A stretch of 41,016 bases of DNA from the NCBI GenBank assembly GCA_039930605.1, contig JBDTTM010000001.1:1-41016 (forward strand). The letters run 5' to 3'. The position numbers and the translations under genes are program-made. The DNA comes from Bacteroidota bacterium (lineage in GTDB: Bacteria > Bacteroidota > Bacteroidia > AKYH767-A > 2013-40CM-41-45). The notes beneath the pieces were generated by a model. It was not told the DNA's origin, did not search any database, and worked only from the letters and a program-made list of their open reading frames with translations. Shown piece after piece: positions 4,758 to 24,365 of this stretch (its first letter is position 1; every line of letters starts with the position of its first letter).

Positions 4758-4839
4758 CAACTGCTTTTCACTGCCCGGTGCTTTTACTTTTGCTTTCGCC
4801 TTAATAATTCACATTTACTTTTTTTAAGTGCAGCCAGTT

Positions 4840-5985: not shown

Positions 5986-6010
5986 ATGATAAAAAGGATG
6001 AATTGAACAC

Positions 6011-7441: not shown

Positions 7442-7473
7442 AGTTTTCTTTATTGCTGAGAAATTTCGGTTTG

Positions 7474-7501
7474 TGATTTTTAGTGATATTATTAAAAATC
7501 A
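7474..7501. terminator. AT-rich 9-bp inverted repeat between convergent genes (possible weak bidirectional terminator)
   Basis: tgattttta (7474-7482) and taaaaatca (7493-7501) are perfect reverse complements with a 10-nt loop. The stem is all A/T apart from one G/C pair, so stability is low. Confidence 0.3.
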
Positions 7502-7508
7502 AATCCGG

Positions 7509-7646
7509 TCATTCATCATTCTTCACAATTTCATGATTTTGTTTCCCCTGACTTTCTTTATCATGCGGTGCCTTTAAGACCAGCAACAGAAACAGTGCTG
7601 CGCAGAATAGCAGGAAAATTTTATTGAAGGTGCTCAGGTTTTTCAT
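7509..7646 (-). CDS. Possible 45-aa small membrane/secreted peptide (below the ORF-track cutoff)
   Basis: Hand translation: MKNLSTFNKIFLLFCAALFLLLVLKAPHDKESQGKQNHEIVKNDE. It has a hydrophobic core and a charged tail, and sits directly downstream of the 83-aa ORF on the same strand. No homology is recognised. Confidence 0.25.
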   Translation of the reverse strand: MKNLSTFNKIFLLFCAALFLLLVLKAPHDKESQGKQNHEIVKNDE

Positions 7647-7654
7647 TTTACAGC

Positions 7655-7906
7655 TTAGTTAAAGAGTTGTGCCCTTACAATCGTATTTACGTCAATCATA
7701 TTTCCGAGTCTATGATGTGCATTCAGCTCATGTGCCTTTTTCGCATCGCTGTAGTCATTCAGTTTTGAGGTATGAATAAAATAATATTCAATCCTTGCAT
7801 CCCTGATATTATAGCGTGCAACCAGCATTCCTTCGTTAATAGAACCGCCGCGGAACATGAAAACGCCTAATTGATGGATAATGTCTTGTACTTCTCTTGT
7901 GCTCAT
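7655..7906 (-). CDS. Hypothetical 83-aa protein
   Basis: ATG-initiated ORF with a TATTTTTG -7 box 24 nt upstream. No family recognised. Confidence 0.55.
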   Translation of the reverse strand: MSTREVQDIIHQLGVFMFRGGSINEGMLVARYNIRDARIEYYFIHTSKLNDYSDAKKAHELNAHHRLGNMIDVNTIVRAQLFN

Positions 7907-7929
7907 ATCTTTGTGTTTGTTTGATGGGT

Positions 7930-7937
7930 CAAAAATA
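7930..7937 (-). promoter_or_regulatory. Putative Bacteroidota sigma-A -7 box (TATTTTTG on the minus strand)
   Basis: Plus strand reads caaaaata. Matches TAnnTTTG, 24 nt upstream of the ATG at 7906. Confidence 0.4.
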
Positions 7938-8076
7938 GGCTGACAATGCCCCCTATTTCAATAATTATTGGTAAAAACAGGGTATTGCCTAAGTAGAAAG
8001 CCCTAATCGTAGGGCGAATCACTATTACTCGCAATGTAAATAGGGTGCTTTCTTTAGTAATTTCTAATATTGCGCC

Positions 8077-8580
8077 ATGCAAATTCAAACCTTGATCCTT
8101 GATAGTGTCCAGATTGATCAGAAAATTAACCGGATCGCATGGCAGATTTATGAAGACAATGCCGGTGAAAAGGAGATTATCCTTGCCGGTATTTTATCAA
8201 GCGGGTATGCAGTCGCTGAAAAGATTGCTGCTTGCTTAAAAAAAATATCATCTCTGGAGGTGCACCTGATTACGATAAAAATTAACAAACACAGCCATCA
8301 TGACGAAGAAGTAAATATTTCCGTTGCTTCAGCTTCTTTGAAAGATAAAATTGTGATTGTTGTTGATGATGTGCTCAATTCAGGAAAAACCATGATGTAT
8401 GCCTTGCGCCCATTTCTTTCTGCAGATCTCAAAAAACTCAGAACAGTAGTGCTGGTAGACAGGAATCATAAACGCTACCCGATATCCGCCGATTTTGCAG
8501 GACTCTCGTTGGCAACAACATTGCAGGAACATGTTTCAGTAATACTGAATGAAACATCTGCAGGGGTTTATTTAAGCTGA
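8077..8580 (+). CDS. PyrR-like phosphoribosyltransferase family protein
   Basis: 167 aa. PRPP-binding loop IVIVVDDVLNSGKTM. VVLVDRNHKRYPISADFAGL resembles the PyrR/UPRTase C-terminal motif. The overall layout matches PyrR by eye. Confidence 0.75.
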   Translation: MQIQTLILDSVQIDQKINRIAWQIYEDNAGEKEIILAGILSSGYAVAEKIAACLKKISSLEVHLITIKINKHSHHDEEVNISVASASLKDKIVIVVDDVLNSGKTMMYALRPFLSADLKKLRTVVLVDRNHKRYPISADFAGLSLATTLQEHVSVILNETSAGVYLS

Positions 8581-8600
8581 AATACCTTTTAACTGTACAG

Positions 8601-9161
8601 ATGTCTTCAAAAAAAATATACCCGGAAAGATCAGCTGGAAATTTCACGCTGCTAATTTTTGTCTTCATTGCATTTACCACATCTGTCAAAGGTCAATATC
8701 GGGAGTTGATCTTTTATAAATTCCCTGTTGGACAGGTCAAGTATTTTCATAAAGATGAAACAGTGATCTTCAAATTAAAATCAGACGAAAAATTTGTTAT
8801 TCGCAAGGGCAAAATCAATCTCATAACTGATACAATGTATGAAGTGAATAAGGTTCGTTTCCGACCTGAAAATTTACAGTGGATAACTCCGCCTCCATCA
8901 AAACAACACCGTATTATTAAAGCATTATCGGGTACAATTATTCTATCCGCTGGATTGGCAACCCTTGCTTACGGCATATTATATTTTCCGGCAGAGCATT
9001 TAAGGAAGGAAAACGAAGTTAAGTATCACAAAAAGAACGAAGATGCAATCACTTATTCGCTTGCGGGGTTGGGAATCGCAGCTATTTCAATTCCTATTTA
9101 CCAGATTCATCCAAAAAGATACTCGGTATCAAAAAGATGGAGAACTAAATACCAGCGTTAA
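8601..9161 (+). CDS. Hypothetical membrane protein
   Basis: N-terminal signal/anchor NFTLLIFVFIAFTTSVKGQ. Two C-terminal hydrophobic helices (ALSGTIILSAGLATLAYGILYF, YSLAGLGIAAISIPIY). No family recognised. Confidence 0.6.
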   Translation: MSSKKIYPERSAGNFTLLIFVFIAFTTSVKGQYRELIFYKFPVGQVKYFHKDETVIFKLKSDEKFVIRKGKINLITDTMYEVNKVRFRPENLQWITPPPSKQHRIIKALSGTIILSAGLATLAYGILYFPAEHLRKENEVKYHKKNEDAITYSLAGLGIAAISIPIYQIHPKRYSVSKRWRTKYQR

Positions 9162-9178
9162 ACCTGGCGTCTGCGGGA

Positions 9179-9694
9179 TCAACTCATTTTTATTTTCCTG
9201 CCAATAGCGCTGCTTAATTTGACAGGGGTGCAAGTTTCTGCATTTATAGTCAGGTTTGCTTTCTCGTAGTAGCTTCTTCTTCCAGCAAGTGTTTCCGTAA
9301 TGTAAATCATGAGTTCTATATCGGTCAGGTGGGAAATCAGCGGCCTGGTTTTTTTTTCTTTTAGCAGGCGATGAAATAAAAATGCTGCGCTGGCTTCGAG
9401 ATAGATGGTAAATCCATTTTCATTCATCCATTCCATATTCCCTTTGACACAAGGAAGGCCGCCGCCAGTTGCGATGATGGCTTGTCTGTTTTTTGAAAGC
9501 GTTCTGAGAACTTCAGCTTCCTTTTCCCTGAATAAAGCTTCACCCTGTTTTTTAAATATCTCATGAATGGTTTCTCCGTCTTCCAATTCGATCATTCGAT
9601 CTGTATCTTTTAACGGATATTTGAGAAGTTCCGCGGATTTTTCTGCAAGGTAAGTTTTGCCACTGCCGGGAAAGCCGATAAGAAAAATTTTCAT
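9179..9694 (-). CDS. aroK: Shikimate kinase
   Basis: 171 aa. P-loop IGFPGSGKT. DTDRMIE...GETIHEIF...GEALFREKE, and ATGGG. Confidence 0.9.
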   Translation of the reverse strand: MKIFLIGFPGSGKTYLAEKSAELLKYPLKDTDRMIELEDGETIHEIFKKQGEALFREKEAEVLRTLSKNRQAIIATGGGLPCVKGNMEWMNENGFTIYLEASAAFLFHRLLKEKKTRPLISHLTDIELMIYITETLAGRRSYYEKANLTINAETCTPVKLSSAIGRKIKMS

Positions 9695-9738
9695 GTTGCA
9701 GTAATAACGGAAATATGACAGCGATATTTGACAGCGTT

Positions 9739-10986
9739 TCAGACTTGCTTGTATTCCTTTCTAATCGCCCATTTGATTAGCGGGGCGCTGCTGATGCTTG
9801 TAAGGAGAGCCATCACAATCAAGGCAACATACAGATCAGCCTGAATAATTCCGGCCTTGAATGCAATCGTGCCGAGTAATATTTCCATTGCACCACGGGC
9901 ATTCATTCCGAATCCCACTGCCAGTGAATTACGGAAATCAAGACCACCTATGTAAGCACCGATACTTGCACCACTGATTTTTCCGACAGAGGCAATGACA
10001 AGTACAATCAGAATGAGCTGAAGGTTGAAATGTTCGATGAAATTTACATGTAAGCCAATACTGACAAAAAACAATGGTGCAAAAATGTTGGTCACAAATT
10101 GATGTATAATTTCCCGCGCACGTTCATGCAAATGGACACTGTCACCCAGCGCAATTCCCATAATAAAAGAGCCAAGTATAGCATGAACTCCCATGCCTTC
10201 AGTAAAAGCTGCGCAAATAAAACAAAGTCCAAGAGAGAAGGACAATACTCCTCCCGGCCAGGAAAGCTTTGTCTGAATATAGGGCAATGACTTGCTCAAC
10301 AATTTTCTTCCTATTGTAAGCATAAATGCGCCGAATGCGAGCACATATAAAATGGTTAATCCGAGGTCACTCCCTACTCCACGATGCTCCATCATTGCAA
10401 GTACAATGGAAAATATCAGCCAGCCGATAAGGTCATTGAACATGGCAGAGGCCATTATCAACATTCCTAATTTGGTCCGGTACATGTTCATATCCATCAG
10501 TATCCTGGCAATGACAGGTAGTGCGGTGATAGCCATCGCAGTTCCAAAGAAAACAGACAGGATCAAATGTGATTCTTCAGATTGGAGCTGGAATAAATCA
10601 GGTCTTAACCATGCCACCCAAAACCCGATAGTGAATGGAATTGCAAGGCTTGTGAGACTTGTATACAATGCAAGTTTTCCCTGTTTGAGTACAACAGGAA
10701 GTTGAACTTCCATTCCTGCAACAAATAATAGCATCACCACAGAAATCTGAGTAATTGCATTCATCGAAATCGCAACATTTCCGGTTTCAGGAAAAAAATG
10801 ATTGAAGAATTCCGGGAAAATCATTCCGACTATTGAGGGTCCGAGAATAACACCGACGATCATTTCGCCCATTACAATTGGAAGTTTAATTTTCCTGCCA
10901 AGTTCAGCAAACATGCGTGATGCAAGCAGCATGATGCTGATTGAAGTGAATAGTACAACTACATCACTATGGGAAAGCGTCTCCAT
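9739..10986 (-). CDS. Cation:proton antiporter (CPA2, Kef/NapA-type)
   Basis: 415 aa with about 12 hydrophobic helices. GEMIVGVILGPS near the N-terminus and SAMFNDLIGW are typical of the Na_H_exchanger family. Confidence 0.88.
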   Translation of the reverse strand: METLSHSDVVVLFTSISIMLLASRMFAELGRKIKLPIVMGEMIVGVILGPSIVGMIFPEFFNHFFPETGNVAISMNAITQISVVMLLFVAGMEVQLPVVLKQGKLALYTSLTSLAIPFTIGFWVAWLRPDLFQLQSEESHLILSVFFGTAMAITALPVIARILMDMNMYRTKLGMLIMASAMFNDLIGWLIFSIVLAMMEHRGVGSDLGLTILYVLAFGAFMLTIGRKLLSKSLPYIQTKLSWPGGVLSFSLGLCFICAAFTEGMGVHAILGSFIMGIALGDSVHLHERAREIIHQFVTNIFAPLFFVSIGLHVNFIEHFNLQLILIVLVIASVGKISGASIGAYIGGLDFRNSLAVGFGMNARGAMEILLGTIAFKAGIIQADLYVALIVMALLTSISSAPLIKWAIRKEYKQV

Positions 10987-12017: not shown

Positions 12018-12938
12018 ATGAAACGTACACTGATATTTTGTATTTCTTTTTTAGTAATCCATCAATTTTCTATGGAGGCCTTTGCCCAGGATGAAAACAA
12101 TGATGAAGACTCCACAGTTTCCTACAAAGGCGCCCGGGGATTTCATATCGGGTTTTACATGGGTGCATTTTTTCCGAATAAAAATTCAACTACAATTTAT
12201 GACGGATATGGATACGATGTGAATGGAAACAGAAATGATTTCTCAAACAGTTTTATGTATAGAAGAATTGTAACCGAGAATGATCCCAACAATGGAAGTA
12301 CAGACAGGATCGCAACAGAATTAGGCGTGGTGAATCATGAGGACTGGAGATTTAATGAAACTGACATGCCTACCAATTTAAAATACAGCACGGCATTTTT
12401 ATTTGGACTTGCATTGAATTATGGACTGGATAAAAAGCAATCCATCATCGCCAATTTGAATTTTGCCAAACTGCGTGTGACGGGAAATTTCACGATTGAA
12501 TCGCGCAACACTGTGAACCAGCAATTGCAGGACTTCAAAAATAATCAATTTGCAATTGTCGGATCAGAGCAGCGGATGATGATCCAGCTCGGATACAGCC
12601 GGATACTGGGTGATAATGAAAAGGGAAATTTTTTTATTGAAGCAGGTCTATGTGTAAACAATGCCAAACTTGAAAAGAATTTTGTGCAGATTAATAGTCT
12701 GGAATTGGACCTCACTTCTTTTGACCAAAATGTAGTTGGTGGATCTTCTGTATACGTTGGTCATTACACAGGGTGGGGCTTTGGCGCCTTTGCGGGTCTG
12801 GGACTGAACCTGACCATGAATCCAAAATACACCATCCAGTTTTTATATACGCCAAGTTATGAGACGATCAATCTTGGTCAGGATCCTGTAACAGCTGTTC
12901 AACACAGCATCGGATTAAGGGCATATTACAATTTCTAA
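12018..12938 (+). CDS. Hypothetical outer-membrane beta-barrel protein
   Basis: Signal peptide ending AFAQ. Alternating-strand pattern (GFHIGFYMGAFF, AFLFGLALNYG, GFGAFAGLGLNL). C-terminal LRAYYNF with a terminal aromatic residue. Confidence 0.6.
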   Translation: MKRTLIFCISFLVIHQFSMEAFAQDENNDEDSTVSYKGARGFHIGFYMGAFFPNKNSTTIYDGYGYDVNGNRNDFSNSFMYRRIVTENDPNNGSTDRIATELGVVNHEDWRFNETDMPTNLKYSTAFLFGLALNYGLDKKQSIIANLNFAKLRVTGNFTIESRNTVNQQLQDFKNNQFAIVGSEQRMMIQLGYSRILGDNEKGNFFIEAGLCVNNAKLEKNFVQINSLELDLTSFDQNVVGGSSVYVGHYTGWGFGAFAGLGLNLTMNPKYTIQFLYTPSYETINLGQDPVTAVQHSIGLRAYYNF

Positions 12939-13232
12939 ATAAAGTTTTTATGTTGAGATTACTGCTACCGTGGTAAACGAACAGGTGGAATAGGCGAAAA
13001 GTATTCAACCTTTTTTTTCTGAAAGAACCTTGTAAAATGATGTAGAATCATTATCTTGCTTCCGGATTTTTATACTGCGAATAAAAAAATCAAAAGGCAA
13101 AGGGGGATGAGCATGGGAAAGGGACCCGGTTCATCAAGTTTATACAAGCTTAAAATTAATGAGAGTGATTCATTGCTCTGTAAATTGAATATGTTCGTCT
13201 CAAAGTCAAAACTATTTAATTCCAATAACCAT

Positions 13233-16200
13233 ATGAAAAAATTACTATTTGCTTTTACCATCTCCCTGGGCCTGGCAACTATTGTCAATGCACAGTGTAC
13301 ATTGACGAATGCAACAGGTTGCAGGTGCTCTGACACAACAAATACAAATTGTGATTTACTTCCTGATATATGCATCGCACGGCTGCCGCTTACACAGGCA
13401 AGTAATTATGCTGAGTATCCGCAGGTATGCAATCCGCCCTGCAATGGAAATGACGCAAGGTTGCGACTTGGAGTCTCTACACCTATAATTGGATTTGGAC
13501 CACTGGAGACGAGAGGTACATCCAAGTATGTATGCGGAACGGATACGGTAGATGCAGGTACAGTTGCAAATATTCCAACTGCCTGCCCGGTGACTGGGGT
13601 ACCACCCCATCAATTGATAAACCAACGTATATATCATAAAAGCGGAAACACGATGACCTTTACTGACCGTGCTGCAGGATCGATGACTTATCATCCAACA
13701 CATGGTCACCAACATGTCGACAACTGGGGTATTTATACATTAAGGACAGCGACTGCAGATCCTAACCCTGTCAATTGGCCAATCATCGGAACAGGAACGA
13801 AACTTGGTTTCTGCTTATTGGATATCGGTAGTTGCAATGGCGGCGTCGGATATTGCACTGACTCTGCAGGTAACACTTTAACCCAGACAAATTTTAATAC
13901 AAGCAGTTTCCGGAATTATGGATTAGGTGGAGGCAGCTATGGTTGTTCCAATACAATGCAGGGAATTTCGAATGGTTATATGGACACCTACAGTTCCGGC
14001 CTGGATGGGATGTGGATTACCATTCCTCCCGGAACATGCAACGGTACTTATTATGTGGTTATTCAAATTGACCCATTGAACTATTTTAATGAAACCAATG
14101 AAAACAACAATGTTGTTGCTGTACCATTTACCCTCACTCAGCAGGCAGGCAGTGCAGTTTCCATCGGCGTAAGCGGACCCACAACTTTTTGCCAGGGTGG
14201 AAGTGTTACGTTGACGGCAAGCAGCGGTGCGTTGAACTACGTATGGTCCAATGGAGCAACAACACAGGCAATTGTAGTAACCACTTCAGGTACATATACA
14301 GTAAGCAGTAATACTTCAACAAGTTGTCCATCTGTTTCGGCACCTGTAACTATAAATGTGACTCCTATGAATGTGGTTGCAGCATCATCTCCGTTAGCAG
14401 TTTGCCAGGGTCAAAGCGTTCAATTATCTACTTCAACAAATGCTGCTTCAACTGTAAATCTTATATCAACTTCTACCAGCAATACGCAGGTATTCATCCC
14501 TGATAACAATGCAACCGGTGTTACATCTCCAATTACTATTGCGGGAATTAATCCAACAACTTTGAATGCAAACTCAATTGTTTCTGTTACCCTGAATCTT
14601 ACCCATACTTATGATGGTGACCTGATCGTTTCATTGATTTCACCTACAGGAAGTACCATCTACCTGAGCAACAGAAGAGGCGGCGGCGGACATAATTTTA
14701 CGAATACCATTTTCACCATGAGTGCAATAACTGCTGTTGGTTCTGGCGCTGCACCTTTTACAGGATCATTTGTTCCTGATGGTGCATACAGTTCTCTTAG
14801 CGGGAATGTAAATGGAACCTGGCAATTAAAAGTGGCGGATGTGGCTGCTGTTGATACAGGCAGAATTGTTAACTGGACTTTAAAATTATTCAATACTGTA
14901 ACGAATGTAGTTACCTACAACTGGACTTCAAACCCGGCGGGATTTAGTTCTACGCAGCAGAACCCGTCAGCCACGCCATCTGGTACTACCAGTTATACTG
15001 TTTCAGCATCTGACTTGAGCGGATGTGCAGGAACTTCTGCAGTAAGTGTCACTGTGAACCCGGTTCCTGTTATTTCCATCAGTCCCCCGATAAGCATTTG
15101 TGCCGGTGCAAGTACCACACTTACAGCTTCCGGTGCCAATTCATACCTCTGGTCTAACGGTGCCACAACTGCTAGTATCACTGTTACACCACCAGGGACT
15201 ACAACCTATTCCGTGAATGGTACCACAGCAGGATGTACGGGCACCAATAGTGTTACCGTAACAATCAGTTCAGTGATTTCTGTTGGTGTTTCATCAATTC
15301 AAAATGCAATTTGTACAGGTCAATCCACTACGTTGAACGCTACAGGAGCTTCAACCTATACATGGAACCCGGGCGGCTTATCTGGCGCCAGTGTTTCGGT
15401 TTCGCCGGCATCCTCAACTACCTATACCGTTACCGGAACAAGCGCCGGATGCACAGGTACAAACTCTATTGCAATTACCGTAAACCCATTGCCAACAGTA
15501 ACCGCGGGTAATGTAAGCGGTTGTGCAGGAACTTCTATTGCATTATCAGGAACTCCAGTTGGAGGAACCTGGAGTGTTGGGAATCCTTACTCCGGAAGCA
15601 GTACTAATTACACGCATACTTATACTAATGCAAATGGTTGTACCAATACAAGTGCTTCAGCAAATGTGACTGTTAATCCATTGCCGGCTGTTTCATCATC
15701 ATCAATTGCAGTGAGTTGCTTTGGCAGCATCAACGGATCGGTAACTGCATCTGCTTCCGGTGGAACACCTGTCTATAATTATTCATGGAATACAATACCG
15801 GTTCAGAATACGGCAACTGCTTCAGGAATTTCATCAGGTAATTACCAGGTTACGGTAACTGATGCAAACGGATGTATTGGTACCCAAACACAGTCTGTAT
15901 CTCAACCGGCAGTTATTTCTTCCTCTGCCAATGTTTCCGATGCAACGTGTGGATTATCCAATGGAAGTATAGACCTCTCCCCTTCCGGCGGTACTGCTCC
16001 TTTTAGTTATAGCTGGAATCCGGGTGGTGCCACATCTCAGGATCTTTCAGGAGTTGCGGCAGGCAATTATTCAGTACTTGTGACTGATGCCAATGGTTGT
16101 AGTCATTCTCAAACTTATACAGTATCACAAACAGGAGGGGCTCCCTCAGCGCCGGCTGCCGCTACAGGCAACAATTATATCTGTAAGAATGCATTTGGGA

Positions 16201-17450
16201 CTTCTTATTCGGTAGCCCTTGTAGCTGGTGCTACTTCATACACATGGTCAGTTCCAACCGGAGCAACGATTGCCACCGGGCAGGGATCAGGTTCAGTAAC
16301 AGTAAACTTCAGTGCTACACAGGCATCCGGAAATGTTTGTGTGTATGCTTCCAATGGTTGTGGCAGCAGTGCTTCTGTTTGTAAACCACTAACAGTAGTA
16401 ACGGCCAAACCGGGTGTACCAAGTGGAATTATTGCTCCGGCACTTTCATGCGAAGGTGCAACGGGGTTGTCATTTTCCTGCCTTGCTGTTATTAAAGCTG
16501 AATCCTATAACTGGAGTTTCCCTGCTGGTGTTGTAATCACCGGTGGCAGCGGTACAAATGCAGTTACTGTTAATATGCCAGCCACTTTTGTATCAGGAAG
16601 CGTTCGCGTTTCAGCAAGCAATTGTTTCGGTACCAGCAGCAACCGAGCGCTTACCATTTATGGCAAACCTTCAACACCGGGAGTGATAACTGGCGCAATC
16701 AATGAAGTATGTCCCGGTTCTGTGGCAATACCTTATACTGTAGCACCGGTAACAGCTGCATCCGGCTTTACATGGACACCTCCATTGAATGCTACAATTG
16801 CAAGCGGTCAAGGAACCAATTCGGTTACTGTTGACTACAGCGCATCCTTTACAACAGGAGCACTAAAAGTGGTTGCTGACAATATTTGTGGATCAAGCAG
16901 CATCCGCAGTACCACCATTCGTTCTGTACCTGTAACTCCAAACGGGATCACAGGAAGTGCTGCTGTTTGTGCGAACCAGACAGGCGTAGCTTATTCTGTG
17001 GCAGCAGTTGCCGGCGCTACCTCTTATGCATGGACGGTTCCAACAGGAGCAACGGTTGCTACCGGGCAAGGAACCGGTTCAATCACAGTAAACTTTGGCA
17101 GTGCATCAGGAAAGGTGAGTGTGCGATCGGTTAATTCCTGCGGACAAAGTTCAGCCCGAACATTCCAGGCAACCATCAACTGCAGGCAATCAGAAGCGAT
17201 CAGCGAATTATCACTCTTCCCCAATCCTGCGCATGACAAGTTGAACGTTGCATTCTATTCAGTTACCGAAGGTCCTTATGAAACCATCATCAGGGATGTA
17301 ACAGGGCGCATCGTTTACATCGGAAACAATCATGCCGTTGAAGGACAAAATCAACTGGAGATGAACATGACGGAATTTGCAAAAGGTGTGTACATGCTTT
17401 CTTTTGAAATGAATGATGTACATCTCGTGAGGAAGATTGCTGTTGAGTAA
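13233..17450 (+). CDS. Multidomain T9SS cargo: lysyl-oxidase-like domain, Ig-like repeats, proprotein-convertase P domain, SprB-type repeats, PKD-like repeats, T9SS C-terminal domain
   Basis: The ORF is open from 13056, but MKKLLFAFTISLGLATIVNAQ (ATG at 13233) is the first signal peptide. Domains are listed as separate entries below. Confidence 0.9.
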   Translation: MKKLLFAFTISLGLATIVNAQCTLTNATGCRCSDTTNTNCDLLPDICIARLPLTQASNYAEYPQVCNPPCNGNDARLRLGVSTPIIGFGPLETRGTSKYVCGTDTVDAGTVANIPTACPVTGVPPHQLINQRIYHKSGNTMTFTDRAAGSMTYHPTHGHQHVDNWGIYTLRTATADPNPVNWPIIGTGTKLGFCLLDIGSCNGGVGYCTDSAGNTLTQTNFNTSSFRNYGLGGGSYGCSNTMQGISNGYMDTYSSGLDGMWITIPPGTCNGTYYVVIQIDPLNYFNETNENNNVVAVPFTLTQQAGSAVSIGVSGPTTFCQGGSVTLTASSGALNYVWSNGATTQAIVVTTSGTYTVSSNTSTSCPSVSAPVTINVTPMNVVAASSPLAVCQGQSVQLSTSTNAASTVNLISTSTSNTQVFIPDNNATGVTSPITIAGINPTTLNANSIVSVTLNLTHTYDGDLIVSLISPTGSTIYLSNRRGGGGHNFTNTIFTMSAITAVGSGAAPFTGSFVPDGAYSSLSGNVNGTWQLKVADVAAVDTGRIVNWTLKLFNTVTNVVTYNWTSNPAGFSSTQQNPSATPSGTTSYTVSASDLSGCAGTSAVSVTVNPVPVISISPPISICAGASTTLTASGANSYLWSNGATTASITVTPPGTTTYSVNGTTAGCTGTNSVTVTISSVISVGVSSIQNAICTGQSTTLNATGASTYTWNPGGLSGASVSVSPASSTTYTVTGTSAGCTGTNSIAITVNPLPTVTAGNVSGCAGTSIALSGTPVGGTWSVGNPYSGSSTNYTHTYTNANGCTNTSASANVTVNPLPAVSSSSIAVSCFGSINGSVTASASGGTPVYNYSWNTIPVQNTATASGISSGNYQVTVTDANGCIGTQTQSVSQPAVISSSANVSDATCGLSNGSIDLSPSGGTAPFSYSWNPGGATSQDLSGVAAGNYSVLVTDANGCSHSQTYTVSQTGGAPSAPAAATGNNYICKNAFGTSYSVALVAGATSYTWSVPTGATIATGQGSGSVTVNFSATQASGNVCVYASNGCGSSASVCKPLTVVTAKPGVPSGIIAPALSCEGATGLSFSCLAVIKAESYNWSFPAGVVITGGSGTNAVTVNMPATFVSGSVRVSASNCFGTSSNRALTIYGKPSTPGVITGAINEVCPGSVAIPYTVAPVTAASGFTWTPPLNATIASGQGTNSVTVDYSASFTTGALKVVADNICGSSSIRSTTIRSVPVTPNGITGSAAVCANQTGVAYSVAAVAGATSYAWTVPTGATVATGQGTGSITVNFGSASGKVSVRSVNSCGQSSARTFQATINCRQSEAISELSLFPNPAHDKLNVAFYSVTEGPYETIIRDVTGRIVYIGNNHAVEGQNQLEMNMTEFAKGVYMLSFEMNDVHLVRKIAVE
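13350..14142 (+). other. Lysyl-oxidase-like catalytic domain
   Basis: By-eye alignment to human LOX: DLLPD vs DLVPD. YHPTHGHQHVDNW vs WHSCHQHYHSMDEF (HxHxH at 13701-13715). GTKLGFCLLDIGSC vs GHKASFCLEDTSC (Lys codon 13800-13802). QGISNGYMDTYSSGLDGMWITI...NETNENNNVV vs [22 protein letters not shown]...ESDYTNNVV (Tyr codon 13989-13991). Confidence 0.75.
14490..14895 (+). other. Proprotein-convertase P domain (no adjoining subtilisin domain)
   Basis: IPDNNATGVTSPITI...VSVTLNLTHTYDGDLIVSLISPTGSTIYLSNRRGGGGHNF...GNVNGTWQLKVADVAAVDTGRIVNWTLKL matches the P_proprotein pattern (H.y.gDL...L.SP.Gt...L; G.W.L.v.D....d.G.l..W.L). Confidence 0.7.
15690..16130 (+). repeat. Two SprB-type repeats (coding)
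   Basis: VSCFGSINGSVTASASGGTPVYNYSWN...GNYQVTVTDANGC and ATCGLSNGSIDLSPSGGTAPFSYSWN...GNYSVLVTDANGC. Confidence 0.55.
16135..17170 (+). repeat. Four tandem PKD-like / Ig-like repeats of about 87 aa (coding)
   Basis: Recurrent pattern P..P..I.G...vC.....YSV..V.GATSY.W.vP.GAti..GQG..S.TVnF.....G.v.V...N.CG.S. Units 1 and 4 share GATSY(T/A)W(S/T)VPTGAT(I/V)ATGQG(S/T)GS(V/I)TVNF. Confidence 0.6.
17205..17447 (+). other. T9SS type-A C-terminal sorting domain
   Basis: ELSLFPNPAHDKLNVAF...DVTGRIVY...GQNQLEMNMTEFAKGVYMLSFEMNDVHLVRKIAVE. Confidence 0.85.
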
Positions 17451-17473
17451 CAATAAAATATGAAAATGATAGA

Positions 17474-17503
17474 GCCGTTCAGCCTTGGTTGAACGGCTTT
17501 TTT
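17474..17503 (+). terminator. Rho-independent terminator
   Basis: gccgttca (17474-17481), 8-nt loop, tgaacggc (17490-17497), then tttttt (17498-17503). Lies 24 nt after the stop at 17450. Confidence 0.85.
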
Positions 17504-17509
17504 ATTGTT

Positions 17510-17580
17510 AAAAGTTAATCCTACCAGCGTCCAATTTTTTTTTCGGCCGACATAGGGGTAAACCCTTTTGAAGTTGTCAT
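17510..17580 (+). promoter_or_regulatory. Tripartite motif copy 1: AAAAGTTAATCC-N30-ATAGGGGTAAAC-N9-GTTGTCAT, upstream of the ECF sigma gene
   Basis: Direct comparison with 21227-21288. The 12-mer is identical, the second 12-mer matches at 11/12, the 8-mer is identical, and the N9 spacing is identical. Confidence 0.5.
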
Positions 17581-17627
17581 CCAGATATAAAAAGGCATTT
17601 GCTAAACTTGCGGACGAATTATTCAGC

Positions 17628-18197
17628 GTGTCCCAGGAAAACGATATAGCAAATGCATGGAAGCAGGATGAAAAAGCTTTTGAAGACTTATTCAGAAGTT
17701 TATATCAGCCACTGTGTAAGAATGCGAATATGCTATTGAATGATTCCGATGAAGCCGAAGAAACCGTACAAAATGTCTTTATTTCACTTTGGGAAAAACG
17801 CAGGGAAATGGAGATAACTATTTCAATCAAATCTTATTTGTACAAAGCTGTGCGGAATGCTTCGCTCAACAGGATCAAACATAGCAAAGTGAGAAAGCAA
17901 TATGTGGAAGAACAACAATACCTTTCTCCTTCAATTCCGGCTACAGAAATCTCTATTCAAAACGAATTACAGGCACAGATTCAAAAGGCTATTGAAAGTC
18001 TTCCGGAGCAGTGCCGTCTTATTTTTAAGTTCAGCCGTTTTGAAGAATTGAAATATTCAGAAATAGCGGAACAACTGGGCATTTCCATTAAGACAGTTGA
18101 AAACCAGATGGGGAAAGCATTGAAAATTATGCGGGAGCAGTTGAGGGATTACCTGGTACTTATCATTTTCATTATTCATTCTCAACTTTTAAGCTGA
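17628..18197 (+). CDS. ECF-type RNA polymerase sigma-70 factor. GTG start at 17628 is preferred. The ORF is open from a TTG at 17568.
   Basis: Region 2 AEETVQNVFISLWEKR...YLYKAVRNASLN. Region 4 HTH LKYSEIAEQLGISIKTVENQMGKALKIMRE. The TTG-17568 extension would overlap the conserved GTTGTCAT element. GTG gives MSQENDIANAWKQDEKAFEDLF, a typical N-terminus length. Confidence 0.85.
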   Translation: MSQENDIANAWKQDEKAFEDLFRSLYQPLCKNANMLLNDSDEAEETVQNVFISLWEKRREMEITISIKSYLYKAVRNASLNRIKHSKVRKQYVEEQQYLSPSIPATEISIQNELQAQIQKAIESLPEQCRLIFKFSRFEELKYSEIAEQLGISIKTVENQMGKALKIMREQLRDYLVLIIFIIHSQLLS

Positions 18198-19208
18198 TTG
18201 GAAAACAGGTTTGAACATATTGATGAAACAATTGCCCGGGTATTATCGGGTGAAGCCAATTTCAGGGATAAAAACCTGCTTCAGGAATGGATTGCTTTGT
18301 CCGAAGTAAATAAAAATACTTTTTCCGCATCAGAAAAATTATTTCTGCAAAGTAAAAATGTGAAACATCAAATTCCTGTTGACACAGACAAAGCCTGGAT
18401 GAAGGTAAAGAGCAGGATGAATGTGCAGGAAAATGACGCAAAAATTATTTCCATCAATTCAAGACCGTGGACTTCCTTCCTTCGGATTGCAGCCATACTG
18501 GCTATCGTGGGCGGATTGAGTGCTGCTGTTTATTTTTCCCTTGCTCCTGCAAAGATGGTTAATGATAAAATTATTTCTTCTGCAGATGTGATTGTGCATG
18601 AAATACTCCCTGATGGTTCATCAATTACCCTGAATAAAAACAGCAGTCTCAGTTACTCCTCTGCCGGCTATGGCAAAGCGCGAATCATTCAACTGAAGGG
18701 CGAGGCATTTTTTGATGTAAAGCATGACGACACAAAAGTATTTGCCATTGAAGCCGGTGAATTGAAGATTGAAGACATTGGAACTTCATTTAATGTAAAT
18801 GCAAATCCGGCAGCTAAAAATATTGTTGTTACTGTTAAAACAGGTGAAGTAAAAATAACAGCAAATGGAAAGTCAGAGATCAACCTGGTTGTAGGAGAAA
18901 CAGCCGATTATAATTCTGAGACAAATGTTTTTGTCAAATCTCTTTCTGAAGACAAAAACATTACGGCCTACAATGACAAAATATTTGTATTCGACAATAC
19001 GGAACTGCAGGTCATTGTAAAACTCCTGAATGAAGTGTACAGTCAAAATATTGTATTCCAAAATGATGATCTGAAGAAATGCAGGCTCACGGCTTCTTTC
19101 AACAATGAAACATTGGATTCAATCCTCGGGGTCATTGCTGAAACACTGCAATTGCAGGTTAACAAAACAGAAACTGAAATTAAGCTGAACGGCAATGGTT
19201 GCAAATAG
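18198..19208 (+). CDS. FecR-family anti-sigma factor (TTG start abutting the sigma stop codon)
   Basis: N-terminal anti-sigma segment (ARVLSGEANFRDKNLLQEWI). TM helix FLRIAAILAIVGGLSAAVYF. FecR domain (ITLNKNSSLSY...LKGEAFFDVKHD...FAIEAGELKIEDIGTSFNV). C-terminal DUF4974-like block (FDNTELQVIVKLLNEVYSQNIVF). Confidence 0.85.
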   Translation: MENRFEHIDETIARVLSGEANFRDKNLLQEWIALSEVNKNTFSASEKLFLQSKNVKHQIPVDTDKAWMKVKSRMNVQENDAKIISINSRPWTSFLRIAAILAIVGGLSAAVYFSLAPAKMVNDKIISSADVIVHEILPDGSSITLNKNSSLSYSSAGYGKARIIQLKGEAFFDVKHDDTKVFAIEAGELKIEDIGTSFNVNANPAAKNIVVTVKTGEVKITANGKSEINLVVGETADYNSETNVFVKSLSEDKNITAYNDKIFVFDNTELQVIVKLLNEVYSQNIVFQNDDLKKCRLTASFNNETLDSILGVIAETLQLQVNKTETEIKLNGNGCK

Positions 19209-21009
19209 CAGAATCCTCTACCTCTTATTCCTGTTCATTATTGTCAACCCGAAAATTAATTCCGGTCAAACAAAAACACCCGCGCTGGAGCGAACTGTTT
19301 CTATCAATGTTGCAAATGAAACGATGGAAACAGTCCTCGACCAAGTTTCAAAACAAGGTCATTTCAGCTTCTCGTTTAATCCGGCTATAATGGATTTGAA
19401 AAAAGTTGTGACGGTTAAAATGAAAGATAAATCTGTAAGAGAAGTTTTGGAACATTTGCTCTCACCTGGCGTGAAATATAAAATGAGAGGCGAACATATT
19501 ATTCTTACGAAAGCGCCTGTATCTGAAAAAACATCAGCTCCCTCCTATTACCTTATCAGTGGCTATGTTACAGACGGTAACAATGGAAATAAAATTCCCG
19601 AGGTGAGTATTTATGATAAAGAAACAAGGTCATCTTCTGTTACAAACCATTATGGTTACTATGAACTTAAAGTTGACCGCAAGACAAATTCAGTACAGCT
19701 CATCGTGAATAAGCAGCAATTTAAAGACACGCTGATATATGTAAAACAATCCGGCAATACGATTATCAATGTAACCATCTATCCCGCGGAAAAGCTGCCT
19801 GAACCTGTTGATTCATCTGGCATTAAGCTGGAACAGGTAACAGAAGATCAGCTTGCATTCATAGATTTCATGCTGAGCGAAGAGCAAAAGGCAAATACAC
19901 GAAATGTAAAGGACACACTGAATAAAAAATTTCAACTCGCCTTCCTTCCATTCATTGGTTCTAACCTGCGCTTAAGCGGGAATACTGTAAACGATTATTC
20001 ATTGAATGTGCTGGCCGGATATTCCATGGGAACAAAAAAACTTGAAGTGGCGGGCTTGATCAACATTGACCGTGATTCTGTGCAGTCTTTACAAATAGCC
20101 GGTTTAATCAACGCAACAGGAGGCCCTGTAAATGGTGTTCAGCTGGGCGGACTCATTAACGCAAATATGAAGACTACAAAAGGGATACAACTTGCAGGAT
20201 TGTTGAACTGTAATGGTGACACGGTCCGTGGTTTCCAGGCCGCCGGATTGCTCAATGTAAATTTGGGTGAAGTACACGGAGTGAATGCTGCAGGCTTATT
20301 GAATGCCTCTTTTGGAAATATTGAAGGCGTGCAGGTCGCAGGACTCTTAAATTTTTCTTTGAAAGAAATAGAAGGTGCACAGGTTGCCGGCTTGTTAAAC
20401 GTCGCAGCAAAAGATATATCAGGAACACAAATTTCCGGATTGGTGAATTACGCCTCAAAGGTTAAAGGTTCACAATTGGCATTTCTGAATATTTCTGATT
20501 CCTCCTCAGGAATACCTGTTGGTTTTTTGAGCTTTTCAAGGAAAGGATATCATACAATAGAAATCAATGCAGATGAAGTGTTCCAGGTGAACCTGGCTTT
20601 CAGAACGGGCGTCAGGAGGTTTTACAATATTTTCACCTCAGGAATTCAAACGAAAAATCTGGAAAATCCGCTTTGGCATTATGGATATGGTTTGGGAACA
20701 GCGGTTAACCTGGGAAAAAAATGGTGGCTGAATTTCGATCTCACGGCGCAGCAATTACTTAAAGGTGGTACGTTTGAAGAATTGAACCTGCTCAGTAAAT
20801 TTAATGTTACACTGGATAAATCGCTTGCGAAAAAATTTACTGTGGCGTTTGGACCAACTTTCAATTTCTATGCATCAAACACAACTGTCCCGTATTACAA
20901 AAGCGATTTTAGCAAACTTCCTCCTTATACTTTTTCAAATGAAAGCTACTCCAACGACTTGAATATTAAAATGTGGGTTGGTGGAAAGGTGGCGCTGCGG
21001 TTTTTGTAA
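19195..21009 (+). CDS. STN plus carboxypeptidase-regulatory-like domain protein with 16-residue repeats. No TonB-dependent plug or barrel.
   Basis: Overlaps fecR by 14 nt. Signal peptide. STN block VSINVANETMETVLDQVSKQGHFSFSFNP...VREVLEHLL...YKMRGEHIILT. CarboxypepD_reg-like YLISGYVTDGNNGNKIPEVSIYDKETRSSSVTNHYGYYEL. Nine xQxAGLLNxxxxxxxG units. Strand-rich C-terminus ending KVALRFL. Confidence 0.8.
   Translation: MVANSRILYLLFLFIIVNPKINSGQTKTPALERTVSINVANETMETVLDQVSKQGHFSFSFNPAIMDLKKVVTVKMKDKSVREVLEHLLSPGVKYKMRGEHIILTKAPVSEKTSAPSYYLISGYVTDGNNGNKIPEVSIYDKETRSSSVTNHYGYYELKVDRKTNSVQLIVNKQQFKDTLIYVKQSGNTIINVTIYPAEKLPEPVDSSGIKLEQVTEDQLAFIDFMLSEEQKANTRNVKDTLNKKFQLAFLPFIGSNLRLSGNTVNDYSLNVLAGYSMGTKKLEVAGLINIDRDSVQSLQIAGLINATGGPVNGVQLGGLINANMKTTKGIQLAGLLNCNGDTVRGFQAAGLLNVNLGEVHGVNAAGLLNASFGNIEGVQVAGLLNFSLKEIEGAQVAGLLNVAAKDISGTQISGLVNYASKVKGSQLAFLNISDSSSGIPVGFLSFSRKGYHTIEINADEVFQVNLAFRTGVRRFYNIFTSGIQTKNLENPLWHYGYGLGTAVNLGKKWWLNFDLTAQQLLKGGTFEELNLLSKFNVTLDKSLAKKFTVAFGPTFNFYASNTTVPYYKSDFSKLPPYTFSNESYSNDLNIKMWVGGKVALRFL
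20041..20472 (+). repeat. Nine tandem 48-nt (16-aa) coding repeats, consensus (V/I)Q(V/L)AGL(L/I)Nxxxxxxx G
   Basis: LEVAGLINIDRDSVQS / LQIAGLINATGGPVNG / VQLGGLINANMKTTKG / IQLAGLLNCNGDTVRG / FQAAGLLNVNLGEVHG / VNAAGLLNASFGNIEG / VQVAGLLNFSLKEIEG / AQVAGLLNVAAKDISG / TQISGLVNYASKVKGS. The period is exactly 16 residues. Confidence 0.9.
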
Positions 21010-21226
21010 ATCCAAACCCATTTAAGCTTTATGTGTCCGATGTGTTTCAAGTTTTTTTCATCCCACGGGGTTTAACAGCCTTTTCAACACATAGTCACAT
21101 AGACTGCATAGAAAATAATTTCAATAGAAGTCGCCCATCAAATTTTAAAATAATTTGGATCTATACATATAATCTATCTGTCTTTATCTCTTATTGATTA
21201 AGAACACAGTATCAAACTTCTATATA

Positions 21227-21288
21227 AAAAGTTAATCCCGGAATTATTTCCAAACCACGATAGGGGTTAACTATCTCCCGGTTGTCAT
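21227..21288 (+). promoter_or_regulatory. Tripartite motif copy 2: AAAAGTTAATCC-N21-ATAGGGGTTAAC-N9-GTTGTCAT, upstream of the TonB-dependent receptor
   Basis: Same three blocks as 17510-17580. GTTGTCAT ends 27 nt before the ATG at 21316. Confidence 0.5.
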
Positions 21289-21315
21289 AGATAATATCAC
21301 ATTAATCTAAAACAT

Positions 21316-23676
21316 ATGACAATCAAATTTCAGATCTCATTTCTATTCTCATTCCTCCTGTTCCAATTGCTTTCCGCTCAAGAGCTCACGCAAACGATCA
21401 GGGGAACTGTTGTGGATAAAATCACGCAAATGCCTTTACCCGGCGCCAACGTGGTTGTAATCAATTCAACACCATTCAATGGAGCATCTACCGACCTGGA
21501 TGGTAAATTTAAAATCAGCCATGTGCCGGTTGGGAATCATTCGCTGAAAATTTCATTTCTTGGTTACAAAGAGCTCACCCTTCCAAATATTGTGGTGAAT
21601 TCCGGAAAAGAGGTCGTACTTAACGTTAATGTTGAGGAGAATATCATCCAGGGCGCTGAAGTTGTGGTTACCGGTAAATTAGAAAAGAACAAAGCCATCA
21701 ATGAGTATTCAGTAATCAGCGCGCGGACTTTCTCTGTTGAGGAGACGCAAAAGTATGCAGCTGCAGTGAATGACCCGGCAAGAATGGCGACGGCTTATGC
21801 AGGAGTAATCTCTACCAATGATGGGAATAATACAATTTCAATAAGAGGAAATTCCCCGAATGGACTTCAATGGAGAATGGAAGGCGTTGAAATTCCCAAT
21901 CCCAATCACTTCTCTAATGTAGGAACATCAGGAGGTGGAATTTCAATTCTGAGTTCCCAGCTGCTAACCAATTCAGATTTTCTTACCGGTGCCTTTTCCG
22001 CTGAATATGGAAATGCTTTGTCAGGCGTATTTGACCTTAAGCTCCGGAAAGGAAATAATCAGAAACGTGAGTATACCATCCAGGCCGGAATATTAGGTAC
22101 CGATGTTGCTGCTGAAGGTCCGTTTAAAAAAGGATATGATGGATCCTATCTGGTGAACTACCGCTACTCTACGCTTTCTTTGTTAGATAAGATTGGAGTA
22201 AATATCGGATTTGGTACTACCACATTCCAGGACCTATCCTATAACATTTATGTGCCTACAAAGATTGCCGGTAGTTTTACCCTCTTTGGATTCGGTGGCT
22301 TGAGCTCGCAGGTTTTCAAAGCAGAAAAAGACTCTGCTCAGTGGACAGACTATTTTCACCGCATCAGTTCAAAGTTTCATGCAAATACGGGTGCATCAGG
22401 AATCACACACTTTCTCACCATCAACTCTTCTACATACCTGAAGACCTCACTCATTGCTTCGGGCACCAGCAACGGATACACTGATGATCTTATTAATGAG
22501 GAATATAAAACTGAACACCTCGGCGACCAGGATTTGTATCAGCGTAAAATATCACTGTCAAGTGTATTGACGAAGAAAGTGAATTCGCGTCTTAATCTGA
22601 AAGCGGGCATTACTGGAAATAAAATTTATTATTCTTTTTTCAAAAGGTATAAGAATGATGAAACAGACGAAGTTGAAACATATATCAACGAGGGAGGAAG
22701 TGCTTATACTTTCCAATCATTCATCCAGGCAAGTTATCATGCAACTGAAAGGCTGACGTTGAACGGTGGCGTGCATTTCCTCGTGCTTGCAACAAATGGG
22801 ACTTATGCTGTGGAGCCGCGGATTTCTGTGAAGTATGAACTGAATCCTGCACAATTCATTTCTCTTGGATATGGCTTGCACAGCCAGGTTCAGCCATTGG
22901 GTGTGTATTACGTGCAGCGAACAAATACAAATGGTGTGATTGAGAAGCCAAATAAAAATTTAGGTTTCACCAAAGCACAGCACCTTGTATTGGCTTATGA
23001 CCGGTCATTAAGTGAGTTTCTGCATTTGAAACTGGAAGGATATTATCAATACCTGTACAATATCCCGGTGAGTACAGATCTTGCAAGCACCTACTCAGTA
23101 CTCAACCAGGAAGAAGGCTATACCGATGAAGTGCTTACCAATAAAGGAACCGGCCGCAATGCCGGAATTGAACTGACGTTCGAACAATTTATGAGGAAGG
23201 ATTTATACTTCTTACTTTCCGGTTCATTATTCGATTCCAAATACAAAGCTGCCAATGGAGAATGGTACAATACCCGTTTCAACAGCAACTACAATATAAG
23301 TTTTACTGCCGGGAAAGAAGTGAAGACAGGAGAAAAATTCAGAAACCGAATACTTGGCTTTAACCTGAAAAGCGTGTACAGCGGTGGCTTGCGCGAAACG
23401 CCGATCAATGAACAGGCATCAGTTGCAAATGGATATGCCGTGCAATATGAGAACAGGGCTTTCGAACACAAAGTGAAAGATTACTTCAGGACCGATATCC
23501 GCCTAAGCGTTAAACGCAACAGGACAAAGAGTACTGTGACCTGGGCATTGGATATTCAAAATGTAAGCAACCACAAGAATGCTTACGGTAAATATTTTGA
23601 TCCCCAGTCAGGCAAAATACAAAACTGGTACCAGGCACCACTCATTCCCATATTGAGCTATAAAGTAGATTTTTAG
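21316..23676 (+). CDS. TonB-dependent receptor (CarboxypepD_reg N-domain, plug, barrel) with no STN extension
   Basis: Signal peptide ending LSAQ. IRGTVVDKITQMPLPGANVVV...DLDGKFKISHVPVGNHSLKISFLGY. Plug-like NDPARMATAYAGV...ISIRGNSPNG. Long strand-rich barrel with terminal LSYKVDF. Confidence 0.9.
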   Translation: MTIKFQISFLFSFLLFQLLSAQELTQTIRGTVVDKITQMPLPGANVVVINSTPFNGASTDLDGKFKISHVPVGNHSLKISFLGYKELTLPNIVVNSGKEVVLNVNVEENIIQGAEVVVTGKLEKNKAINEYSVISARTFSVEETQKYAAAVNDPARMATAYAGVISTNDGNNTISIRGNSPNGLQWRMEGVEIPNPNHFSNVGTSGGGISILSSQLLTNSDFLTGAFSAEYGNALSGVFDLKLRKGNNQKREYTIQAGILGTDVAAEGPFKKGYDGSYLVNYRYSTLSLLDKIGVNIGFGTTTFQDLSYNIYVPTKIAGSFTLFGFGGLSSQVFKAEKDSAQWTDYFHRISSKFHANTGASGITHFLTINSSTYLKTSLIASGTSNGYTDDLINEEYKTEHLGDQDLYQRKISLSSVLTKKVNSRLNLKAGITGNKIYYSFFKRYKNDETDEVETYINEGGSAYTFQSFIQASYHATERLTLNGGVHFLVLATNGTYAVEPRISVKYELNPAQFISLGYGLHSQVQPLGVYYVQRTNTNGVIEKPNKNLGFTKAQHLVLAYDRSLSEFLHLKLEGYYQYLYNIPVSTDLASTYSVLNQEEGYTDEVLTNKGTGRNAGIELTFEQFMRKDLYFLLSGSLFDSKYKAANGEWYNTRFNSNYNISFTAGKEVKTGEKFRNRILGFNLKSVYSGGLRETPINEQASVANGYAVQYENRAFEHKVKDYFRTDIRLSVKRNRTKSTVTWALDIQNVSNHKNAYGKYFDPQSGKIQNWYQAPLIPILSYKVDF

Positions 23677-24333: not shown

Positions 24334-24357
24334 GATCTTATAGTTGTTATGAAAGGG

Positions 24358-24365
24358 CAAACTTA
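24358..24365 (-). promoter_or_regulatory. Putative -7 box (TAAGTTTG on the minus strand)
   Basis: Plus strand reads caaactta. Confidence 0.4.

Follow-up and report, generated by a model that had tools for sequence, protein, structure and literature searches.

Does the gene at 13233..17450 on the plus strand of a 41,016-bp contig from a Bacteroidota metagenome-assembled genome (MAG) encode an active bacterial relative of the animal lysyl oxidases (LOX) and, if so, on what would such an enzyme act? The contig was analysed in its entirety and is referred to as the window. A preliminary description of its sequence had proposed that the gene product carries a LOX-like catalytic domain with conserved residues for copper binding and for the lysyl-tyrosylquinone (LTQ) cofactor, on an adhesin-like protein exported by the type IX secretion system (T9SS). 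Our analyses demonstrate that amino acids (aa) 41-305 (13353..14147, +) are a divergent but complete LOX catalytic domain, and the conservation of its residues indicates that this tip domain, a true relative of the animal enzymes, is probably active. Combining these data with the architecture of the protein, we consider it likely that the protein functions as a T9SS-exported copper/quinone amine oxidase that is held on a stalk and acts on lysines or amines outside the cell.

A long open reading frame (ORF) at the locus reads from 13056 to 17450 (+). Because the homologues begin at the internal ATG at 13233 (MKKLLFAF..., of which MKKLLF is the common start), we take the product to be the 1405 residues that, together with the stop codon, are encoded by the complete coding sequence 13233..17450. 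The identical protein sequence in NCBI, MEO8085179.1, is titled 'proprotein convertase P-domain-containing protein'; this title omits the LOX domain, though homologues bear the NCBI name 'lysyl oxidase family protein', and the annotation thus misses what is likely an enzymatic head.

The region 13350-14142 reads in frame as CDLLPD...FTLTQ and contains every motif on which the preliminary description was built, all on the plus strand: HPTHGHQH (aa 154-161, 13692-13715), GTKLGFCLLD (aa 188-197, 13794-13823), GYMDTY (aa 248-253, 13974-13991), GMWITI (from aa 259 onward) and NETNENNNVV (aa 286-295, 14088-14117). The pairing of these motifs with animal LOX was reproduced in our alignments (YHPTHGHQH/WHSCHQHYH, GTKLGFCLLD/GHKASFCLED, GYMDTY/GCYDTY, GMWITI/CQWIDI and ETNENNNVV/ESDYSNNVV). 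We regard LOX homology as established because four independent methods agree, i.e. Pfam, a family profile searched against the PDB, hhalign and Foldseek. With respect to sequence, (i) the protein matches Pfam PF01186 (Lysyl_oxidase) with 32.0 bits (gathering score 20.4; E=1.2e-7), and the same family is found in 42 of 43 full-length relatives with a best E of 1e-11; (ii) a profile of 32 homologues identifies human LOXL2 (5ZE3) among PDB sequences with E=6.8e-5, and in the same comparison HMMER reports a non-significant collinear piece that pairs HptHgHmH with HDCHRHYH and GaKlgFClmD with GHKASFCLED; and (iii) hhalign of the family against 15 aligned vertebrate LOX/LOXL sequences (LOX, LOXL1 and LOXL5 retrieved) gives Prob 96.9% and E=1.8e-10 over 137 columns (aa 131-307), and in relaxed or global mode Prob 97.4-97.9% and E=1e-11 to 3e-12, spanning aa 41-309 against positions 1-201 of the 208-position LOX domain with DLLPD placed against GLPDL. 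The homology claimed from motifs alone has therefore passed a profile check, both in Pfam and in hhalign, where it reaches E=3e-12.

It could be argued that short motifs in a Cys/Gly/Asn-rich secreted protein resemble LOX by chance and without homology: a single-sequence phmmer search of PDB sequences finds LOXL2 only at E=6.9, which is not significant, and identity to LOXL2 in the structural alignment is about 15%. We consider chance resemblance effectively refuted, given that Pfam, the profile search against the PDB, hhalign and Foldseek agree and that a bridging relative (P0323) provides an intermediate match, covering PF01186 profile positions 70-199 with E=8e-15. Among other amine-oxidizing families, neither the topaquinone (TPQ) copper amine oxidases nor the LodA-type quinoproteins gave a match in the Pfam scan at E<=0.1.

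Structure prediction leads to the same family. An AlphaFold2 model of aa 1-316 with the signal peptide included (model 1) has a predicted local distance difference test score (pLDDT) of 89.6, and a model of aa 41-306 built on a deeper alignment (model 2) has a pLDDT of 94.6 and a predicted template modelling score (pTM) of 0.90. In Foldseek searches of the PDB, both chains of 5ZE3 (LOXL2) are the sole matches with E<0.001. The domain-only model aligns to 5ze3_A/B with E=4.1e-7, prob 1.00, a query-normalised TM-score (TMq) of 0.49-0.50 and a root-mean-square deviation (rmsd) of 6.2-6.8 A, and model 1 superimposes poorly (TMq 0.31, rmsd 12.6 A). The next match after 5ZE3 has E=0.03 for the domain-only model and E>=0.016 across both models. 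The target-normalised TM-score (0.31) is low because the 441-residue 5ZE3 chain also carries two SRCR domains. H159/H161 and Y253 are predicted to lie on strands, as in LOXL2. The models thus indicate that the LOXL2-type catalytic fold is present, in moderate rather than tight agreement, and the preliminary description is upheld at the level of the fold, with LOXL2 as the sole significant PDB match and a TM-score of about 0.5.

Conservation of the catalytic residues was evaluated in three sets: 43 full-length family members; 87 ORFs from 78 loci that cover the domain; and 50 relatives with identities as low as 32%, taken partly from the close homologues and partly from an exhaustive search that covered 1.84 billion representatives. 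In the copper-binding motif H154-P-T-H157-G-H159-Q-H161 (13692..13715, +), the candidate ligands H157, H159 and H161 align in hhalign with H292, H294 and H296 of human LOX and with H626, H628 and H630 of LOXL2, and H154 aligns with human LOX H289; the three candidate ligands are kept in 50/50 relatives and H154 in 45/50. K190 (13800..13802, +), the predicted LTQ lysine, corresponds to K320 of human LOX and K653 of LOXL2 through the alignment of GTKLGFCLLD with GHKASFCLED and is kept in 49/50 relatives. Y253 (13989..13991, +), which we predict to be the LTQ tyrosine and the fourth metal ligand of the precursor, corresponds to Y355 of human LOX and Y689 of LOXL2 (hhalign pairs GYMDTY with GCYDTY) and is kept in all 50. 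In LOXL2 the metal ligands are exactly those three aligned His and the Tyr, and in the crystal structure a distance of 16.6 A separates the Lys from the Tyr (PMC5899467). The LOXL2 Ca2+ site is formed by D549, L550, E722, D724, N727 and N728 (PMC5899467). In the present protein D41-L42 (13353..13358, +) align to D549/L550 (DLLPD with GLPDL), and E287-T-N289-E-N-N292-N293 (14091..14111, +) aligns to the ligands E722, D724, N727 and N728. Among the 50 relatives, L42 is kept in 49 and D41 in 35, E287 and N292 in all, N293 in 49, and N289 as Asn or Asp in 47; the D724 position is Asn in the present protein and Asn or Asp family-wide.

In the 43 full-length members H154, H157, H159, H161, K190, C194, D197, D251 and Y253 are invariant (43/43), and the motifs H..H.H.H, K...C..[DN] and QGI..G..[DN].Y are all present in 87/87 ORFs. 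This is the pattern expected under selection on catalysis, and the conservation of the copper His triad and of the LTQ Lys and Tyr that had been read from the single sequence extends, as aligned by hhalign, to 49-50 of 50 relatives. One relative (P0033), in which the His triad and the Tyr are intact, carries Ile at the position of the LTQ lysine (GDILGFC); this could point to an inactive paralogue or to an error in sequencing.

Compared with animal LOX and LOXL1-4 (PF01186, EC 1.4.3.13; 5ZE3 is the human LOXL2 precursor), the whole catalytic domain is collinear, at an identity of about 15-30%. Common to both are the H-x-H-x-H motif with the preceding His, the Lys in G-x-K-x-x-F-C-L-x-D, the Tyr in G-x-x-D-x-Y, the Ca2+ site DL...E-x-D/N-x-x-N-N, a Cys pair equivalent to C657-C673 and the beta-sandwich fold. 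The present protein differs from animal LOX in that it has neither a propeptide nor SRCR domains, in that the catalytic domain stands at the N-terminus instead of the C-terminus, and in that it is bacterial with a predicted T9SS export route.

Several observations weigh against reading the domain as a working LOX: (i) the HMMER match to PF01186 is limited to aa 235-304 and profile positions 128-197 of 204, i.e. the C-terminal third; (ii) the structural likeness to LOXL2 is moderate, with a TM-score of about 0.5 and an rmsd of 6-7 A; (iii) the His of the GHK motif (LOXL2 H652) is Thr, Ala or Ser in the family; (iv) four of the five animal disulfides are absent and 21-33 residues are inserted between the Lys and the Tyr, both of which bear on the geometry of LTQ cross-linking; and (v) across the 78 related loci compared, no copper chaperone, substrate gene or other partner is conserved beside the LOX gene.

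The differences in point (iv) are best seen residue by residue. LOXL2 has the five disulfides 573-625, 579-695, 657-673, 663-685 and 732-746 (PMC5899467), and of these only the 657-673 pair has both partners in the present protein (C194 and C238), in line with the earlier remark that several LOX cysteines are replaced. C201 aligns to LOXL2 C663, yet its partner position is Y249, and the positions of C625, C695 and C732 are occupied by T156, G259 and Ala/Val, respectively; in human LOX numbering, C291 is replaced by T156, C351 by Y249, C361 by G259 and C398 by Ala/Val. Cysteine patterns differ among prokaryotic LOX (PMC6452851), and the five-disulfide set is a mark of the animal enzymes and not of the LOX family at large. 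The 43 members have invariant cysteines of their own, namely C22, C30, C32 and C40 in an N-terminal cap and C101, C118, C208 and C269. The Cys-rich cap (13293..13352, +; aa 21-40, QCTxxNATxCxCxxxxxxxC) lies outside the hhalign match to LOX and is without counterpart in animal LOX. The family-specific insertion between the LTQ Lys and Tyr (13836..13928, +; about aa 202-232) falls in a gap in LOX and contains the invariant C208; its pLDDT rises from 79-83 in model 1 to about 89-93 in model 2. As a result, the Lys-to-Tyr spacing is 56-68 residues in the family versus 35 in human LOX; the third copper His (H161; H296 in human LOX) precedes the Lys by 29-30 residues versus 24, i.e. about five residues are added.

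The second part of the domain has a further relationship. The C-terminal strands and the Ca-site motif (13974-14147, aa ~248-305) resemble CARDB modules. The CARDB structures 3IDU, 2KL6 and 2L0D are weak matches in PDB sequence and Foldseek searches; the likeness to CARDB lies in the core sandwich and the C-terminal metal-binding strand 'E-x-N/D-E-x-N-N' (for 3IDU, target-normalised TM-score, TMt, 0.60; prob 0.72), whereas CARDB lacks the inserted hairpin that bears the His triad and the Lys/Tyr. Membership of the present protein in CARDB (PF07705) was rejected at 18.3 bits against a gathering score of 22.7, and Pfam CARDB matches occur in 9 of the 43 relatives. In the 1.84-billion-protein library, many proteins of 1300-7800 aa match the query at ~184-286 (mostly ~220-286) 8-23 times. 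One possibility is that a CARDB-type Ca-binding sandwich, into which a Cu/LTQ hairpin has been inserted, makes up the LOX core; more speculatively, the family suggests that insertion of this hairpin into such a sandwich gave rise to LOX.

The same relationship raises the alternative that the domain is a catalytically dead, LOX-like or CARDB-like beta-sandwich that serves as the binding or structural head of an adhesin, with the conserved His, Lys and Tyr serving metal-dependent folding. The likeness of the C-terminal part to non-enzymatic CARDB (18.3 bits, the weak structure matches and the repeat proteins that match aa 220-286) would fit such a head, as would the remainder of the protein, which consists of adhesin-type repeats. 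However, the CARDB score is below the gathering threshold, and the catalytic set is kept in 87/87 ORFs and in 49-50 of 50 relatives, across ~30-80% identity and rearranged architectures; inactive homologues usually lose such residues, and only P0033 is without the Lys. A purely structural role is unlikely because the catalytic residues are conserved, and we consider a dead domain improbable.

How would a LOX domain of this kind reach its site of action? The protein begins with a putative Sec signal peptide (aa 1-20, 13233..13292, +) in which n-, h- and c-regions can be read from the sequence as MKKLLFAFTISLGLATIVNA followed by Q; cleavage is predicted before Q21, and the hydrophobic N-terminal segment aligns in all homologues. 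Q21 (13293-13295) and C22 are invariant in 43/43 family members, and the invariant Gln after the cleavage site fits the Bacteroidetes 'Q-rule', i.e. an N-terminal pyroglutamate on exported proteins. At the other end, aa 1328-1404 (17214..17444, +) form a type-A T9SS C-terminal sorting domain (CTD) that scores above the cut-offs of both PF18962 (Por_Secre_tail; E=7.1e-12, 45.9 bits, cut-off 27) and TIGR04183 (25.8 bits, cut-off 23), so that the T9SS signal implied for this repeat-rich protein in the preliminary description stands.

Between these export signals the LOX domain is followed directly by an Ig-like domain (aa 310-390, 14160..14402, +; of the Ig_7 type in relatives) in which C320, Y336, W338, G341, T343 and G353 are near-invariant in the 43 members; a second Ig-like copy at aa 614-666 was detected as an internal repeat by self-BLAST. 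Further along are a proprotein-convertase P-domain (aa 450-552, 14580..14888, +; PF01483, E=5.8e-16), SprB repeats in two stretches (aa 834-853 and 899-932, 15732..16028, +; PF13573, E=1.1e-17, and self-BLAST) and four PKD_6 domains (aa 978-1048, 1060-1140, 1146-1226 and 1233-1312, 16164..17168, +; PF19408, E=2.1e-71, and self-BLAST). In 43 relatives Lysyl_oxidase was found in 42, Por_Secre_tail in 39, PKD_6 in 28, and the P-domain and Ig_7 in 26 each. The combination of putative signal peptide and Gln, a stalk of Ig, PKD and SprB repeats and a Por_Secre_tail/TIGR04183 end is the same as in type-A T9SS cargo such as the gingipains and the SprB-type PKD-rich proteins. The label 'adhesin-like' would follow only from the content of repeat domains. 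The known T9SS cargo enzymes are mostly hydrolases.

Three more genes in the window bear a CTD (27451-30927, +; 30936-31934, -; 31985-33514, -); one of these has Sortilin-Vps10 repeats, one DUF1028, and one, of 509 aa, has no recognised N-terminal domain. Of the ORFs that were scanned on the 41-kb contig, none was recognised as a por/gld/spr gene for the T9SS machinery.

By combining the domain homology with this architecture, we suggest the following sequence of events. Removal of the Sec signal peptide would expose the invariant Gln21, and the protein would fold in the periplasm, where D41, L42, E287, N289, N292 and N293 would bind Ca2+ and where H157, H159 and H161 would bind Cu2+, joined in the precursor by Y253 as a fourth ligand. 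Copper and O2 would then oxidise Y253 to dopaquinone, to which K190 would add to give the LTQ. The type-A sorting domain would carry the folded protein through the T9SS, after which the protein would stay attached to the outer membrane or be set free, with the oxidase at the distal N-terminal end of a stalk in which Ig-like, P-domain, SprB and PKD repeats make up ~1000 residues. In this position it would catalyse extracellular ping-pong oxidative deamination and convert primary amines to aldehydes, NH3 and H2O2. The favoured substrates would be lysine side chains of external proteins (peptidyl-lysine); we favour macromolecular substrates because the LOX site is surface-exposed and because the domain sits on a stalk beside a P-domain.

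Alternatively, the same chemistry may be directed at small soluble amines such as free lysine, cadaverine, putrescine or taurine-like compounds. Its purpose would be to scavenge ammonia or to generate H2O2 against competitors, like the unrelated marine LodA-type lysine oxidases, and it would have no part in protein cross-linking or adhesion. The one characterised prokaryotic LOX that we found in the literature searched, HTU-LOX of Haloterrigena turkmenica, is an active amine oxidase, sensitive to beta-aminopropionitrile (BAPN), on lysine polymers as well as on small amines (PMC6452851). It belongs to the same Pfam family as the present domain and has the same conserved copper and LTQ residues. 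HTU-LOX is promiscuous and oxidises taurine, glycine, gamma-aminobutyric acid (GABA) and even aminoglycosides, and this relaxed specificity speaks for small amines (PMC6452851). In the same direction, no gene for collagen, elastin or another obvious substrate protein is linked to the locus, and the hosts are environmental, the assembly names of relatives suggesting sludge, lake, river and soil. However, a catalytic domain at the tip of a ~1000-aa Ig/PKD/SprB stalk and its recurrent fusion to a P-domain are better explained by surfaces or macromolecules, and in LOXL2 models the LTQ and copper are solvent-exposed in a manner suited to protein substrates (PMC9659206). Neither of these last two arguments is decisive. 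We regard small amines as the principal substrates as possible but clearly less likely than lysines of external proteins or other macromolecules.

We identified 60 close homologues, of which all named ones are from Bacteroidota MAGs and several are titled 'lysyl oxidase family protein' in NCBI. When a single genome was scanned for each GTDB species, at least 375 related loci emerged, the closest being 78% identical; nearly all of the best 80 of the 375 relatives are labelled uncultured Bacteroidota or its sub-groups, and three of these 80 are labelled 'Bifidobacterium' and look like binning or labelling errors. In the search of 1.84 billion representatives, 151, 645 and 2196 matches were obtained at E<=1e-30, 1e-10 and 1e-3, respectively, the 151 being clusters that we count to this sub-family. 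LOX-headed T9SS paralogues often occur in tandem (L001, L003, L004, L033, L044, L050 and L062), with several copies per MAG. At L001, which is syntenic with the present locus, two LOX genes (2159-5938 and 6001-9813) lie past an ORF resembling an outer-membrane protein (OMP), where the present contig has one.

In distant relatives (P0280, P0290, P0304, P0315, P0323, P0246, P0271 and P0310) the domain order is reversed. Relatives of ~450 aa have a P-domain (aa ~60-175) and then LOX (~185-450), and relatives of ~610 aa have, in order, a P-domain, LOX, PKD and a T9SS CTD. The pairing of LOX and P-domain thus persists through domain reordering, which suggests that the two domains are functionally coupled.

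How does this family relate to what has been described for prokaryotes? LOX was reported from five bacterial phyla including Bacteroidetes by Grau-Bove et al. 2015 (PMC4448552). Together with the at least 375 loci in the present sub-family, this survey means that the statement in the preliminary description that prokaryotic LOX homologues are sparse understates their abundance. Because Bacteroidetes LOX was reported in 2015 (PMC4448552) and because Pfam and NCBI recognise relatives, the identity of the domain is not new. In the 2015 survey nearly all prokaryotic LOX are 'just the LOX domain' and the first His of the motif is missing from the bacterial ones (PMC4448552). In contrast, the present domain forms the head of a multidomain T9SS cargo of 1405 aa, and the first His is retained in 45/50 relatives, being replaced by Asp or Glu only in the distant ~450-aa relatives with the order P-domain then LOX, in most of those checked. 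Our literature searches returned nothing relevant beyond Grau-Bove 2015 that links LOX with the T9SS or with Bacteroidetes, and no paper that links a LOX-type amine oxidase with T9SS cargo. In the literature searched, the following appear to be undescribed: the size of the sub-family, the uniform N-terminal placement on T9SS cargo, the arrangement of paralogues in tandem, the P-domain as a recurring partner, the loss of nearly all animal disulfides and the retention of the first His.

The functions of prokaryotic LOX have been termed enigmatic (PMC6452851), and the present family raises the question of what purpose the oxidation of lysines or amines outside the cell serves in environmental Bacteroidota. 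As a tentative and rather doubtful extension of our data, T9SS-displayed LTQ/copper oxidases, a large family rich in paralogues, might serve uncultured Bacteroidota as 'chemical' tools on the cell surface. If so, stalked, P-domain-coupled oxidases would oxidise lysines in proteins of prey, host or matrix or in substrate proteins, and the outcome would be covalent attachment, cross-linking or local H2O2, a role for LOX that is undescribed in bacteria. The family is also of interest for the animal enzymes, which are drug targets in fibrosis and metastasis. According to the literature consulted, there is no structure of an LTQ-containing, catalytically competent LOX, only the Zn-bound LOXL2 precursor and models derived from it (PMC5899467, PMC9659206). 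An abundant sub-family on secreted surface proteins offers tractable material for the structure and mechanism of LTQ biogenesis. Given its small size, its low number of disulfides and its confident model, the domain could become the first in which a mature, LTQ-containing LOX site is solved structurally.

The genomic context places the gene on its own. A 294-nt intergenic gap lies 5' of the LOX gene, and directly past its stop codon a terminator-like hairpin (17471..17500, +) with a 13-bp stem is followed by a T-run, so that the gene seems to close a transcription unit of its own. A sigma-70 promoter scan found fewer sites than in shuffled controls, the sigma-70 model being ill-suited to Bacteroidota promoters. 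The flanking genes are housekeeping genes or belong to a cluster of extracytoplasmic function (ECF) sigma factor, FecR and TonB receptor. Among the 78 loci compared, synteny (Usp and the OMP-like ORF) is common only to the closest relative, L001. The OMP-like ORF at 12018-12938 (+) encodes 306 aa with a signal peptide and a C-terminal ...YYNF, has no Pfam match and looks like an outer-membrane beta-barrel; an ORF of this type is present upstream of LOX genes only in L001 and one further locus of the 78. Directly downstream, 17568-23676 contains an ECF sigma factor, a FecR anti-sigma factor and two consecutive ORFs, the first with STN and CarbopepD_reg_2 (604 aa) and the second with CarboxypepD_reg and Plug (786 aa); the pair has the appearance of a TonB-dependent transducer that has been split or duplicated or has an unusual organisation. 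Still further downstream, the gene at 24543-26579 (+) encodes a 7TMR-DISM membrane sensor fused to an adenylate/guanylate cyclase domain, and a stand-alone response-regulator receiver (23890-24360, -) adjoins it.

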